Of a stretch of 64,000 nucleotides of DNA, positions 22,724 through 60,800 are shown piece after piece; position 1 is the first letter of the stretch; each line of letters starts with the position of its first letter. The stretch lies in NCBI GenBank assembly GCA_000165345.1, contig CM000436.1:416001-480000 (forward strand), given 5' to 3'. The notes beneath the pieces were generated by a model. The model was not told the origin of the DNA. It saw nothing but the letters and a program-made list of their open reading frames with translations, and ran no database searches. A program made the position numbers and the translations under genes.

Positions 22724-23745
22724 TCTTAATAATTATTAAATAACTTTTCTTAAAACTTCACATAATAAGCTTAATTCCCTCGCATTAAATACATATAAAT
22801 CAAAGAATCTTTTACTATTATTGATAACGATATTGATGATAAATTTATTACCATTCTTCTTAATGACTCATCCTGTTCCATTTTTTCCTTTGTTTGCTTC
22901 ATGGCGCCCAAAATTCCCATTGTTAAACTTGGAATATCAGGGCAATATAACTTCTAAAAACAATATTAAATTTAAATTAAATCATTTCATTTTCTTAGAT
23001 AAGATTATGGGGACAAATTTTGGAGTACTTAAAGGAAATTCTTGCTTAGAATTTGTTCTGTAGTAATCATTCATTATATATACTTTTTCTTATTACAACC
23101 AGCCACCCCTCATTGTGTTTTTCCCGAACACATTTTCCTGGTCAGAAATAGATGGGAGAAAAAAAAATTTGTAATTGTGAAAATACTCACAAACTTTTCC
23201 AAACACTTAAATAGTTTGAAATAATAAAAGTAAATCCACACATCTTTTTCTCGACCTCCCATCTAGACGCTTCCAATTGTTACCTTATCCACTTTATCTC
23301 CCTCGAAAAGCATAATTCATAAGCTTTATTTCTCCACAATTCCCCAAAAAATAACTTACCAACTTTGTGTATAAACCTTCATCTATAACTTTCATCTCCC
23401 CGTCACAATTAATACTGCAAATTAAATTGCTCTCCATTCTTTATAACTTTTTATTTGTTACTAAATTATAGTTCACACCTTAATTCTCCAGAAAAAGGCG
23501 CCAGCTCCCCCTATACCGGCAAACACTTGCAAAGAATTGGTAATACATGCATGTATGCATGTGGACAATAAATTATTAAATTATACACGTGTTAAAAAAT
23601 AATAATGTGTGCAAATAGCAGAGAAGGGGGAGAGGAAGAAAAAAGAAAGTATAAAGAAAGTAAACTCTAAAAAGAAAAAGGAAATAACCAGAGAAGGAGT
23701 AGAAACAAAATAGTAATTAAGCTAGGGAAATAATATATAATCTAG

Positions 23746-26115
23746 TTATACTAATGACTTTTGTTCTTTAGTATAAGATGCAGGAATCAAAATTAGAAAT
23801 GAAAAAGTGGAAAAAAGTAATAAACAAAGGAAAAGAGCACTCCATCCATAATATTCGCTAATATAGGCAGTAAGAGTGCCTTGAGTGACAGCACCAAATG
23901 CTCCCAACCCATTAACAATACCTGTTGCCATAGAATCAATAGATTTAGTTGTAATATTAGATTTATCAAAAACATCCTGAGCTGCAGTTGAACCCAAAAT
24001 ACTATCAGGGCCCGAAACGCAGAATCCCATAAAAGCAATACCAAATAAAATAAGTAAATTTAATCCTGTTTTTGTGATTATCATGAAATATGATATACTC
24101 AAGGAAACAAATATCGACATATAACATGCAACCAAAATTCTTTTTCCTCCAAAATATGTATCAGCTATTGCACCTGCAGAAATTGCACCTGCAATACCGC
24201 CAATATCAAATAGCATTGATGAGTATCCTGCAACTGAAGGACCATAATTTAATTCACGTATTAAATAATAAGGTAACCAAAATAGCATTGAATATCTAAT
24301 CAATTTTATGAAATAGTAACTTATTGCTATGTTTAATATATTTGGTATCTTTAATAATATTATTAATTTCTCTACAAAGCCTACATCGTCCATATTTTGA
24401 ATATCAAATGAAGAGTAGATATTATTTTCCACATTATTTTCTTTTAAATTTGGATTCTGTGTAAAATCTCCATTACTACCATTTGTTGTATCCTTATTGT
24501 TTAACTGCTTTCTATTCTTTTTTGTTGGAGAGAGCTCTGAAATATAACTTAAATGATCACTAAATTCTGATTTTTCTATGCTTAATGATGTACCAAAGCC
24601 ATCATTTATGAATTTATCTCCATCTTCCATATGTAAATCAGTCATAGAGTCGTTTTCCTTCTCTGAAAGACTTTTTTGCATTAATAATTGACTGCTACTA
24701 CCACTATTTGAACTTGAATTTGCAGACATATCTTGAATTTGATGGTTCTCAAATCCCAAATTGTCTGGTTCATTCAAATAAGCCTCTCCTTCTTCTTCTT
24801 CTTCTTCTCCATTTATCAAATGAGATGAAGAAGCCAGCAAAGGATTGCTCCTTGAATCTAATAAGTTGCTACTGTACTTGGTCATCCCATTTTCTATCTC
24901 TTCTTGATGCGTCCCTTCCGCAATACTTCCCAACTCCTCATAATCTTCTTCTTTTTCAACCCTATCTATTCTGGCAGGCTTTACTATACCAATAGCTTCT
25001 AGCTCCTCTTCTCTATTGAACTTTATCTCATTATTAACTTCTTTGTTGTTATTGGAGTCTTCCATCATTACTAAAACCATATTATTTTCGTTTAATTCCT
25101 TATTTCCTACATTATCGTAAATATATAAATTCTTTGGTTTCTTTAAATACTTTAATACTATGATTCCAAAAAGAAAAACAAAAATTGATGGAATATAAAA
25201 TACAGACCTCCATCCTAACTTTAAACAAATTGAAGCTGAAAATGCTGTGGAAGCCATTGCTCCAACTTGTTGGCTTGTTGTCCAAACACCTAAAATCCTT
25301 CCTCTTTCACTCACTCCAAAACAAGTTATTAAATATTTAACTAGCATTGGATATACGCCTGCATGGAATAAACCATTGAAAAACCAAGATAACAAAAGAG
25401 AAGTTGAGCTATAAGAAATCCCAAATATTAATGATGTAATAGCTGAACAAATAAATGATATGCATATGTACTCATTCACTTTAAAGTTTTCAAACATCGT
25501 CGGAATTATTAATTGGCCAAATGCGTAAGAACCCAAAAAAGTTGTATCTATCCATCCCAAAACAGATGTAGAAAGTGATAAATCTTCTTGTATTTGTAAC
25601 TTAACAACTGAAAATGGCTTTCTCGTTGAATACAAAACTAAATATGATAAATAAGCCAAAAAGAATTTGTTATACTCGTCTTTTGACATACTAGGGAGTA
25701 ACTTTTTCATCATTGTTAAATCCATTAACTTGCTAATGAACCATTCATACCTCAAATTTATCATTCTCTTTTTTGAACTTAAAATATTTTCGATATTAAC
25801 ATTTTCCAAATTAGACATTTTCTGGCACTCATCTCCTTGTCTTACTACTATTCCTGGCTTAATCACACCATTACTTCCATTTCCCATTAACATACATAAA
25901 TTATCTATACTATTGTAATTTCTACTTGACTTTGAGCTTCCATCACAAGAAGGAAACCCTGTCGAAGTTGAATACATTGAATCATCACAACTCTCATACT
26001 TTTCCAAATAGTTAGATCTGTCAAATAATCTCAGTTCATCATTAGCGCATAAATCGATCTCCTCCTCTTCGCAATAATTACTATTGATTGCATTATTTAG
26101 CTTTAGTTCCTCCAT
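23746..26115 (-). CDS. Major facilitator superfamily transporter, organophosphate:Pi antiporter (SLC37/GlpT/UhpC-like sugar-phosphate exchanger), with a large E-rich cytoplasmic loop insert
   Basis: 12 predicted TM helices split 6+6. N-terminal half LSYLVLYSTRKPFSVVK ... GWIDTTFLGSYAFGQLI resembles the SLC37/GlpT signature region. The central loop of about 250 aa is acidic and low-complexity. Confidence 0.7.
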   Translation of the reverse strand: MEELKLNNAINSNYCEEEEIDLCANDELRLFDRSNYLEKYESCDDSMYSTSTGFPSCDGSSKSSRNYNSIDNLCMLMGNGSNGVIKPGIVVRQGDECQKMSNLENVNIENILSSKKRMINLRYEWFISKLMDLTMMKKLLPSMSKDEYNKFFLAYLSYLVLYSTRKPFSVVKLQIQEDLSLSTSVLGWIDTTFLGSYAFGQLIIPTMFENFKVNEYICISFICSAITSLIFGISYSSTSLLLSWFFNGLFHAGVYPMLVKYLITCFGVSERGRILGVWTTSQQVGAMASTAFSASICLKLGWRSVFYIPSIFVFLFGIIVLKYLKKPKNLYIYDNVGNKELNENNMVLVMMEDSNNNKEVNNEIKFNREEELEAIGIVKPARIDRVEKEEDYEELGSIAEGTHQEEIENGMTKYSSNLLDSRSNPLLASSSHLINGEEEEEEGEAYLNEPDNLGFENHQIQDMSANSSSNSGSSSQLLMQKSLSEKENDSMTDLHMEDGDKFINDGFGTSLSIEKSEFSDHLSYISELSPTKKNRKQLNNKDTTNGSNGDFTQNPNLKENNVENNIYSSFDIQNMDDVGFVEKLIILLKIPNILNIAISYYFIKLIRYSMLFWLPYYLIRELNYGPSVAGYSSMLFDIGGIAGAISAGAIADTYFGGKRILVACYMSIFVSLSISYFMIITKTGLNLLILFGIAFMGFCVSGPDSILGSTAAQDVFDKSNITTKSIDSMATGIVNGLGAFGAVTQGTLTAYISEYYGWSALFLCLLLFSTFSFLILIPASYTKEQKSLV

Positions 26116-26631
26116 AAATTGATAAGGTATTAAACTTGGAAAATTATCAACACCTTAAAGATTAACTTTGACTTAATAATATTAACAAGAATTTTTTTCA
26201 TAGGCCAGTCCTAATTCGCCAATTTACATACTCTTTCTCGTTGCTTTATATTCAGAATGTATTATTCACAAAAATTCTGTGGTGCTTTCTTTTGCTTTTT
26301 AATCTTTCTTAATTTCCCCCCAATATCTATTTAGTAAAAAAAAAATTGAATTCCAAAAACTTACAAAATTTCAATCCCTTCAATTTCTCTTGATAATTAT
26401 TTGTAGCAAAATTATCTCAAATCAACCAATAACCAAGTCAAATAATGCTTAGCTTTATTCTCCTCCCTCCTTACACCTCAGTATTTGATATTTTATTCAA
26501 ATTATTTAAAAAAACTATATATAGGATTTTTAGTCTCCAAATCTCAATTCCATCAAAATTTATTGATTTATACTTTTTTTTATTACCTCTACTTTTTTAT
26601 ATTATTTTAATATGCTCACTCTGTGTGGAAC

Positions 26632-26651
26632 TTTCCCGCCTAGGCGGGAAA
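26632..26651. promoter_or_regulatory. Perfect 20-bp palindrome TTTCCCGCCTAGGCGGGAAA (back-to-back E2F-like half-sites)
   Basis: Direct reading; the reverse complement is identical. Located in the upstream region of the MFS transporter gene (minus strand), 13 bp past the stop of the 2120-aa gene. Confidence 0.6.
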
Positions 26652-26663
26652 CCGGGTATCAAT

Positions 26664-59911: not shown

Positions 59912-59964
59912 GTAGGTTAAATTTTTATGATATTCTATACGAACTCTGACTTTTATTTTTTTAG

Positions 59965-60461
59965 GACAAAGATCAGACAATGGAGCAGTAATCGGAGGTT
60001 CTATTGCTGGAGCTTTATTAGGAGTAGGAGCTCTTTCAGGAGGATTATCTTGGTTTTTCATAAATAAGAAGAAAGAAGAAGAAAGAAAGAAAAGGTTGAG
60101 GGCAATTAGAGAGAGAAGAGCTAGGTTGGCAGCTTTAAGAAGAAGCGTATCAGAATCAGCAATTAGCGCAGGAGAAAGTGTACCGGGAACAGGAGGAAAT
60201 CCTGTTAGAAAAACAACAAGTACTCCTGGACAGCAATTAGGGTCTTCTTCGTTAGTTACTATTGATACTTCATCAAACTCTCCAAATGTTCTTGATTCAA
60301 GCGCTTTTTCCCTTCCAATATTGGACATACATACAGGAAACAAGGGCTTAAGCAAAAAAACAGGTACAAACAATAATCTCAGAGGATCGGGACAAGGCTC
60401 AGCTAATCCAGCCAATAAGACTAAGTTAAATTTAACTACTGAACTGAGCAATTTTGATTAA
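59965..60461 (+). CDS. Mucin-like membrane glycoprotein, exon 2: transmembrane helix plus basic cytoplasmic tail (includes listed ORF 60096-60461)
   Basis: 53-nt intron (59912-59964) with acceptor ttttttttag|. Phase-1 junction gives G-QRSDNG-AVIGGSIAGALLGVGALSGGLSWFFI-NKKKEEERKKRLRAIRERRARL ..., a perfect TM helix and stop-transfer signal that the ORF track misses. Confidence 0.6.
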
Positions 60462-60743
60462 TTAGCTCAGGAGTATTGTATTATGATTTAGGTTTCAAGC
60501 TTAAAATACTTGCAACTTTTTTGTTAATATGTTTTTTATTCGAAAAAAAAGAATAAAAGTATGAAGGAAGAGCTACATTTTTTGAGTTTTTAATTTTTTT
60601 TTTGGTATTCCGCATAGTCTGATTACCAGATTTTTTAGTTTCAAGCTCCTTACACTAGTAGAGCCACGATGGTTGTAGGAAAATAAGAACTTTCTATGAA
60701 TTGTAATAAATTTATATTCGAATGCTGCTTTATTTGTATTAAT

Positions 60744-60800
60744 TAGAGCCGCCCGCCTTATGTGCATGCATGCACTTATGTGGACAGCAGGCATTGCATG
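60744..60800. promoter_or_regulatory. GAGCCGCCCGCC box followed by perfect 14-bp palindrome GTGCATGCATGCAC and TGCATGCGCA, upstream of the poly-UBL gene
   Basis: Direct reading. About 380-440 bp upstream of the ATG at 61182. Confidence 0.5.

Follow-up and report, generated by a model that had tools for sequence, protein, structure and literature searches.

The palindromic motif TGCATGCA, termed AP2_1, was published for Cryptosporidium by Bankier 2003 and Oberstaller 2013/2014, and has been the best-known cis-element of the genus since 2003-2013. It is bound in vitro by the ApiAP2 domains cgd2_3490 and cgd1_3520, among others (PMC3734150; PMC4117751). In C. parvum it is over-represented in noncoding DNA, upstream of glycolysis-pathway genes and of many co-expression clusters, and it is common to the site of Plasmodium AP2-Sp (PF14_0633) and the Toxoplasma TRP-2 element (PMC3734150; PMC4117751; PMC12246861). 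Hasan et al. 2024 reported that the promoters of 65 genes of the macrogamont are enriched in TGCATG(T/C)(G/A), for which cgd2_3490 is the candidate regulator (PMC11078545). Li et al. 2021 catalogued 396 mostly antisense long noncoding RNAs (lncRNAs) of C. parvum, which tend to start at gene 3' ends; the motifs of E2F/DP1 and ApiAP2_1 were the top two at most 100 bp upstream of these lncRNAs, and no positional grammar was found (PMC7840661). The motif itself therefore adds nothing new, and its link to antisense lncRNAs has been published since 2021. Here, we study a window of 64,000 nucleotides (the whole stretch of DNA analyzed) from chromosome 8 of Cryptosporidium parvum, with emphasis on an AP2_1 site at 40596, located in the spacer between a protein kinase gene and the gene of V-ATPase subunit B.

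On balance, we favor the following overall reading: the known AP2_1 elements of the window mostly lie upstream of genes and lncRNAs, and the site at 40596 is a conserved promoter-type module which would initiate a noncoding transcript. Two lncRNA promoters at a distance of 7-9 kb, a comparison of the spacer among nine species and the published properties of the motif carry this reading. Coordinates of all elements and genes are collected in Table 1.

Identity and enrichment of the AP2_1 motif

A sequence-only reading of the window had described the palindromes as AP2-like and of promoter type. This description is correct, as TGCATGCA is the published AP2_1 motif and matches the protein-binding-microarray consensus [T/C]GCATGC[A/G] (PMC3734150). 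We regard the sites as almost certainly representing the known Cryptosporidium element. In sequence they show no difference from it (TGCATGCA / BGCATGCAH); like it, they are palindromic, enriched in noncoding DNA and often arranged as tandem (TGCA)3, and they lie upstream of fermentation/glycolysis-type genes, namely those of Fe-alcohol dehydrogenase (Fe-ADH) and AdhE. Binding at the window sites is predicted, whereas the published binding was observed in vitro. A match of TGCATGCA to a COWP4 preprint turned out to be a primer for the polymerase chain reaction and was discarded.

Besides the consensus match, the sites show over-representation, noncoding or upstream location, and conservation in orthologous promoters. 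Eleven overlapping matches of TGCATGCA at eight loci compare with 0.67 +/- 0.79 in dinucleotide shuffles, none of 100 of which reached 11, and the half-site TGCATG has 57 matches in the window versus 21 expected. Although intergenic DNA accounts for 20% of the window, six of the eight full-motif loci are intergenic (binomial p = 0.0013), as are 20 of the 38 half-site loci (p = 9e-6), and 19 of these 20 fall in spacers that hold a gene start. Five of the six intergenic full-motif loci, together with a half-site cluster at 23545, are located 136-823 bp upstream of a start codon. Between three and eight further Cryptosporidium species retain the sites at 33560, 47893, 52068, 60763, and 31144.

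In orthologous spacers, conservation of the site often comes with an E2F site at fixed spacing. AP2_1 usually acts as part of a short composite module, together with E2F/DP1 sites (GGCGCC/CCCGCC) and the element ATGTGGACA; in the window, matches resembling the Cryptosporidium E2F/DP1 sites ([C/G]GCGC[G/C], TTSSCGCC) co-occur with AP2_1 in modules at 47940, 31156, and 60749. ATGTGGACA is the reverse complement of 'Motif5' of Li et al. (TTGTCCACATK) and has four copies in the window versus 0.42 expected, at 23559, 31192, and 60778 (+) and at 14745 (-). The first three each have an AP2_1-type site 3-36 bp to their left.

Two sites precede published antisense lncRNAs

Mapping of the lncRNA sequences from the supplement of Li et al. 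(PMC7840661) placed Cp_lnc_353 and Cp_lnc_354 in the window, and the sites at 31144 and 33560 lie at most 100 bp upstream of their respective 5' ends. The agreement with Table S3 of that study is base for base: GCATGCATGCA, listed at -30 of Cp_lnc_354, is the window site 33560, while the three motifs listed for Cp_lnc_353, ACATGCATGCA at -99, TGCCCGCCTAT at -87, and GTGTCCACATG at -52, are those at 31144, 31156, and 31191. The palindrome at 33555-33576 is a probable bidirectional element, serving the mRNA of the SACS/NOV-like gene leftward and Cp_lnc_354 rightward. The site at 31144 is an antisense promoter embedded in a coding sequence (CDS), as part of the promoter module of Cp_lnc_353.

This embedded module may have left its mark on codon choice. 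The codons TGC-ATG-CAT (Cys-Met-His) of the SACS-like gene are identical in eight of eight species, out to C. bovis, and the six closer species share both GGC-GGG (Gly-Gly, equal to CCCGCC) and GTC-CAC-ATG (equal to CATGTGGAC). Several of these codons are rare in the ORFs (open reading frames) of the window (TGC 29%, GGC 7%, GGG 9%, GTC 9%, CAC 20%). Preservation of AP2_1, E2F (CCCGCC) and CATGTGGAC between 31144 and 31201 in rare codons across six to eight species suggests a dual coding and promoter constraint on the CDS, which bears on analyses of codon usage and selection in this compact genome.

Both lncRNAs rise only at 48 h and belong to lncRNA cluster 4, a sexual-stage set (PMC7840661). 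The window resembles the macrogamont regulon (PMC11078545) in sharing the motif core, in having two motif-linked lncRNAs specific for 48 h, and in that gene order assigns Fe-ADH and AdhE to mRNA cluster 5 (48 h). Unlike in that regulon, other motif-bearing genes of the window are found in expression clusters 3 and 7, such that the motif is not exclusive to this stage.

A conserved promoter-type module between two convergent genes

The sequence-only reading had located one motif between the 3' ends of two convergent genes, and correctly so: the kinase gene on the plus strand ends with its stop codon at 40523 and the V-ATPase B gene on the minus strand with its stop codon at 40967. Within this spacer of 443 bp, the site at 40596 lies 73 bp past the former and approximately 370 bp past the latter stop codon. 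The site has the same sequence in three C. parvum assemblies.

We compared the syntenic locus across C. parvum and eight other species. In six species, AP2_1, E2F or both occupy the aligned position, which lies a short way downstream of an invariant TCCGAT (Table 1). At 40590-40596, a gap of about 13 bp in C. parvum versus C. hominis and C. tyzzeri removes the E2F half to the left of (TGCA)n, and in C. meleagridis E2F sites replace AP2_1 at the orthologous position. Motif content turns over while the position is kept, which argues for a maintained factor-binding module rather than neutral sequence. The spacer of C. bovis (1048 bp) is unalignable and holds two copies of TGCATGCA, 20 bp apart and about 400 bp from the V-ATPase stop codon.

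Four other convergent spacers of the window served as controls. No match to TGCATGCA, GCATGC or E2F was found in PRA1/PNO1, SSNA1/Fe-ADH and the spacer between a gene of about 200 amino acids (aa) and AdhE in the nine species covered, nor between the UBA3-like and the 1506-aa gene in four species. Likewise, TGCATG half-sites are absent from the latter and from two other convergent control spacers in four species. The spacer at 40596 hence differs from ordinary spacers between two 3' ends in its conserved promoter-type motifs, and we consider it rather probable that the module is functional DNA. A second conserved feature, the AT-rich block at 40667-40706, is probably a shared 3'-end/polyadenylation or untranslated region (UTR) signal of the converging genes.

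The sequence-only reading had further suggested an unannotated transcript or antisense promoter near 40590. This suggestion is plausible in view of the motif module seen across species and of the same motif 15-100 bp upstream of two published lncRNAs, but no transcript of either gene's antisense strand is found among the catalogue entries listed. Like the antisense promoters of Li et al. (PMC7840661), the site has AP2_1 (in sister species also E2F) and sits at gene 3' ends. Unlike them, it has no transcript among the catalogue entries listed, and its spacer is convergent and thus offers no mRNA promoter to share. Judging from the two lncRNA cases, a start site of an antisense noncoding transcript would be its most likely function, although we put the chance that an antisense or noncoding RNA is indeed initiated here slightly below even. 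A factor would bind the module in a stage-specific manner, and RNA polymerase II would then start a noncoding transcript that enters the 3' end of the kinase gene, the V-ATPase B gene, or both in antisense orientation. Owing to the palindromic nature of the motif and the absence of a positional grammar in the study of Li et al., the direction of such a transcript is unreadable from the sequence. The link of motif and antisense lncRNAs being known, 40596 is a plausible further instance of a published class.

Weighing of the alternatives

Several observations weigh against this reading. The spacer of C. muris has no motif, and that of C. felis, which is GC-rich, has a single E2F match. C. parvum, C. 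hominis, and C. tyzzeri are near-identical, which leaves only about five independent lineages in the comparison. (TGCA)n is a tetranucleotide repeat and can arise and vary by slippage. One of the 20 intergenic half-site loci lies in a convergent spacer, and as about 10% of intergenic bp belong to such spacers, the depletion is not significant (window only). Finally, the entries listed in the tables of Li et al. include no lncRNA assigned to either the kinase or the V-ATPase B gene, and none of the transcripts listed starts near 40596. In the table sorted by identifier, as far as it is listed, the entry after Cp_lnc_354 is at CPATCC_0001917. Twelve 16-mers from 39900-41500 had no match to the lncRNA sequences listed, which carries no weight, as the neighboring lncRNA numbers fall outside the listed part.

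This absence from the catalogue weighs little, because an antisense RNA from a convergent spacer is on the same strand as the other gene and just downstream of it. The pipeline of Li et al. discards such transcripts: those at most 50 bp from an upstream CDS of the same strand were dropped if co-transcribed with it, a filter which also accounts for 309 of the 363 catalogued antisense RNAs being head-to-head with their neighbor (PMC7840661). A newer annotation of the CpBGF telomere-to-telomere assembly, based on Iso-Seq, comprises 766 lncRNAs (PMC12246861).

The main rival is a (TGCA)n microsatellite or chance copy without function in a 3' spacer, such that only the copies upstream of gene starts would be regulatory. 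The different repeat numbers, (TGCA)3.5 in C. parvum versus (TGCA)4 in C. hominis and C. tyzzeri, are as expected from slippage, and the empty spacer of C. muris, the lack of an lncRNA among the entries listed and the single intergenic locus in a convergent spacer, which is about what spacer length predicts, all agree with it. However, at 0.67 full sites per 64 kb, chance would yield about 0.005 in the 443 bp, five species other than C. parvum carry AP2_1 or E2F at the aligned position, and the unalignable spacer of C. bovis holds its two TGCATGCA copies. Moreover, C. meleagridis replaces (TGCA)n by E2F sites and not by random sequence, and the four other convergent spacers lack either motif in the species examined. 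We therefore hold a functionless repeat to be unlikely.

Second to the microsatellite, and a little less likely still, is a factor-bound element without a transcript of its own, e.g., a 3' enhancer-like, boundary or nucleosome-free element, acting on the kinase gene, on V-ATPase B or on neighboring promoters 1.3-1.9 kb away. The conservation that speaks for a promoter speaks equally for such an element, which fits the lack of a transcript among the catalogue entries listed. The distance to the V-ATPase B stop codon also stays similar, 334-400 bp, even in C. bovis (624 bp on the kinase side). On the other hand, we found no precedent in the Cryptosporidium literature examined, the motif demonstrably adjoins lncRNA starts elsewhere in the window, and antisense transcription from such motifs is widespread in the genome (PMC7840661).

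A role at the RNA level, as a hairpin or protein-binding site UGCAUGCA in the 3' UTR of the kinase mRNA that affects 3'-end formation, stability or translation, appears improbable. At 73 nt past the kinase stop codon and upstream of the conserved AATAAA block, the site is probably transcribed, and the version of each species can fold locally. Hairpin potential is, however, automatic for any palindrome, and stem strength is inconsistent, ranging from 5-6 bp in C. parvum to an 11-bp GC stem in C. meleagridis. In four of the six species, the z-score of the fold is unremarkable, at values from -0.2 to -1.5, and the variants are exact matches to the two commonest promoter motifs of the genome, unlike arbitrary compensatory stems. 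RNAalifold on the conserved spacer gave -0.95 kcal/mol with no compensatory pairs and no conserved structure, and an Rfam scan of the whole window had no match in this spacer.

The promoter of an unannotated small protein-coding gene within the 443 bp can be dismissed as highly improbable: gene callers placed ORFs of 53 aa and 69 aa in the spacer of some assemblies, but many indels of 1, 2, and 4 bp and homopolymer runs pass through them in a four-species alignment and break the frame, and none is annotated there in seven other species.

Returning to the antisense promoter at 40596, we tentatively propose a wider generalization, which we rate as possible. The spacer would be a dedicated, genus-conserved promoter of an uncatalogued, stage-specific antisense RNA that has persisted through AP2_1-to-E2F turnover, with loss of the E2F half in C. 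parvum; in general, complete modules of AP2_1, E2F and ATGTGGACA would be embedded in CDSs via fixed rare codons, a pattern exhibited by the promoter of Cp_lnc_353. Catalogues of lncRNAs from short reads are structurally blind to antisense RNAs which start in convergent spacers, and searching these spacers for conserved AP2_1/E2F modules could offer an inexpensive route to these RNAs from sequence only. The loss of the E2F half in C. parvum versus C. hominis and C. tyzzeri is a concrete difference in a regulatory module between very close species.

Two further searches concerned this locus. A literature search by gene identifier returned a kinome survey only. A metagenome scan for the conserved spacer block returned one unrelated AT-rich contig, which was rejected as a chance match. 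As a side observation, the C. felis spacer (11189-11689 of its locus) has no evident similarity to the AT-rich spacers; the felis locus has 45% GC versus about 32% elsewhere.

Palindromes and further motif sites

Each of the seven strings quoted in the sequence-only reading occurs exactly once in the window. Three had been located correctly (33555-33576, 23545-23564, and 47892-47910) and four were displaced by 1-12 bp: TTTGCATGCATGCATGTAG, put at 40582-40600, is found at 40594-40612, GTGCATGCATGCAC at 60762-60775 rather than from 60760, AAAATGCATGCAATTTTG at 45499 rather than 45500, and AAATGCATGCAATC at 52065 rather than 52066. In place of a full TGCATGCA, the string at 23545 contains TGCATG half-sites, and a 14-bp palindrome, ATACATGCATGTAT, spans 23543-23556. 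Two full TGCATGCA sites, 31144 and 56887, both within long ORFs, had been overlooked.

Extension of the motif to palindromes of 14-22 bp had also been emphasized. The strings of 22 bp and 14 bp are indeed perfect palindromes. The window contains 53 perfect palindromes of at least 12 bp versus about 29 in first-order Markov simulations, a few percent of which reach at least 22 bp; palindrome length by itself is unremarkable in this AT-rich DNA. Only C. parvum has the arms of the 22-mer; C. hominis, C. tyzzeri, and C. meleagridis have GGGTTT-(TGCA)3-AAAT, while the (TGCA)3 core is kept as far as C. felis, which shares the core only. Therefore, the functional unit is the (TGCA)3 core and not the long palindrome. 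The extended palindrome as a special feature is rejected, since its arms are not kept across species and long palindromes are common in AT-rich DNA.

The promoters of both Fe-ADH and AdhE carry the motif, which fits the published link of AP2_1 to glycolysis-pathway genes (PMC3734150). In the Fe-ADH promoter, an E2F site GGCGCC is located at 47940, and the spacing from AP2_1 to E2F is 47 bp in five species. For the site upstream of SSNA1, the corresponding spacer of C. bovis has one TGCATGCA, a candidate homologue only. The module at 60749-60786 is kept in C. ubiquitum and C. felis and partly in chipmunk genotype I.

Around the site within the 1506-aa ORF (56870-56900), a G-box-like CCCCACAC (reverse complement TGTGGGG) and GCACAC, the AP2_2 motif, flank TGCATGCA, which is kept in chipmunk genotype I and C. 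ubiquitum. Protein constraint on the conserved GVHAGVG may suffice for this conservation. Among the entries listed in the tables of Li et al., no lncRNA lies near 56887. The ATGTGGACA copy at 23559 may, by analogy with Cp_lnc_353, indicate where an uncatalogued antisense RNA starts before it enters the MFS transporter gene at its 3' end.

Two E2F-type features were observed aside. A perfect palindrome of 20 bp, TTTCCCGCCTAGGCGGGAAA, at 26632-26651 consists of two inverted E2F sites and lies just past the stop codon of the SACS-like gene, about 520 bp upstream of the MFS start codon. A (GC)6.5 run, GCGCGCGCGCGCG, is found at 39887-39899 in the kinase CDS, about 580 nt from its start codon, where C. 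hominis and C. tyzzeri have matches to the E2F pattern; it may be a further embedded element.

Table 1. Elements, transcripts and genes of the window, with the motif content of the aligned spacer position in six Cryptosporidium species
Feature	Position	Strand	Remarks
TTTGCATGCATGCATGTAG	40594-40612		(TGCA)3.5 core at 40596-40609, two overlapping TGCATGCA sites; candidate AP2_1 promoter element
TTCCGATA block	40573-40580	+	about 15 bp from motif; TCCGAT invariant in six species
AT-rich block TTAAATAAAATACTTAAAATACTTATTACTAATAATAAT	40667-40706		40 bp, near-invariant in four species in otherwise diverging spacer; contains AATAAA
Aligned position, C. parvum			TTTGCATGCATGCATG; (TGCA)3.5
Aligned position, C. 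hominis	11283-11296 and 11283-11300 in the two loci of C. hominis and C. tyzzeri		TAGGCGCCAATGCATGCATGCATGCAG; GGCGCC and (TGCA)4
Aligned position, C. tyzzeri			AAGCGCGCGCGCGTATGCATGCATGCATGCAG; (GC)n and (TGCA)4
Aligned position, C. meleagridis			TAGGCGCGCGCATTCATGCGCGCCT; E2F sites only, GGCGCGCGC..GCGCGCC
Aligned position, chipmunk genotype I			GAGCGCGCACATGCACGCC; GAGCGCGC and ACATGCA
Aligned position, C. ubiquitum			TTTGCATGCATGCGTACATGCAG; TGCATGCATGC and ACATGCA; GGCGCG 50 bp further on
TGCATGCATGTG	31144-31155		in SACS/NOV-like CDS; followed by E2F-like TGCCCGCCTAT (31156-31166) and CATGTGGACAC (31191-31201)
Cp_lnc_353	31244-32670	+	antisense to SACS/NOV-like gene; starts 100 bp past 31144
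22-bp palindrome AATTTTGCATGCATGCAAAATT	33555-33576		(TGCA)3 core at 33560-33571; 534 bp upstream of SACS/NOV-like ATG; about 15-30 bp upstream of Cp_lnc_354
Cp_lnc_354	33591-34781	+	antisense to DNA polymerase delta subunit 2
ATACATGCATGTATGCATGTGGACA	23543-23567	+	TGCATG half-sites fused to ATGTGGACA; 200 bp past MFS stop, 823 bp upstream of next ATG
TGCATGCA	45503-45510		166 bp upstream of SSNA1 ATG; kept in C. hominis, C. tyzzeri, C. meleagridis
TGCATGCAAACATGCA	47893-47908		divergent spacer, 136 bp upstream of Fe-ADH ATG
TGCATGCA	52068-52075		half-site at 52049; 182 bp upstream of AdhE ATG, 553 bp upstream of UBA3-like gene
TGCATGCA	56887-56894		inside 1506-aa ORF (53719-58239, -); encodes ..GVHAGVG..
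Composite module	60749-60786	+	E2F-like CCGCCCGCC, then GTGCATGCATGCAC (60762-60775), then ATGTGGACA (60778-60786); 419 bp upstream of ATG 61182
MFS transporter	23746-26115	-	
SACS/NOV-like gene	26664-33026	-	
DNA polymerase delta subunit 2	33664-35091	-	
SLD5-like	~35750-36826	+	
PRA1	37286-37966	+	
PNO1	38110-38751	-	
Protein kinase	39309-40523	+	CPATCC_003980 (GenBank numbering); in Li 2021, judged by gene order, CPATCC_0001750
V-ATPase subunit B	40967-42448	-	CPATCC_0001760 by gene order
cgd8_1680	~43248 (ORF 43251) to 44696	+	
SSNA1	45669-45998	+	ATG 45669
Fe-ADH	46348-47757	-	
~200-aa gene (g2xx)	~48100-48900	+	
AdhE (aldehyde/alcohol dehydrogenase)	49117 to ~51886	-	
UBA3-like gene	52621-53556	+	
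1506-aa gene (g1506)	53719-58239	-	
~500-aa gene	58816 to ~60430	+	
~1240-aa gene	from 61182	+	

The window and its gene map

The origin of the window from C. parvum is reflected by the kinase of 404 aa, which shares 100% identity with 'protein kinase [C. parvum Iowa II]'. This match sits on the 1.34-Mb chromosome record CM109968.1, where the record coordinate equals the window coordinate plus 406,745, placing site 40596 at approximately 447,341. The window has a GC content of about 31%, and long, intron-poor ORFs occupy approximately 75-80% of it. The gene map was built from Pfam matches and the annotated syntenic loci of eight other species. Assignment of genes to the identifiers of Li et al. 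was inferred from gene order, with the sense genes of the two lncRNAs and the GenBank numbering as anchors.

Three minor observations complete the map. A tRNA gene at 17425-17498 (-) is the sole Rfam match in the whole window. The published lncRNA Cp_lnc_379 maps to 16496-17053 (-), where it is antisense to a CCCH-finger nucleoporin-like ORF (15478-17190, CPATCC_0001630). An (AT)12 microsatellite is located at 42697-42721 in the divergent spacer of V-ATPase B and cgd8_1680.

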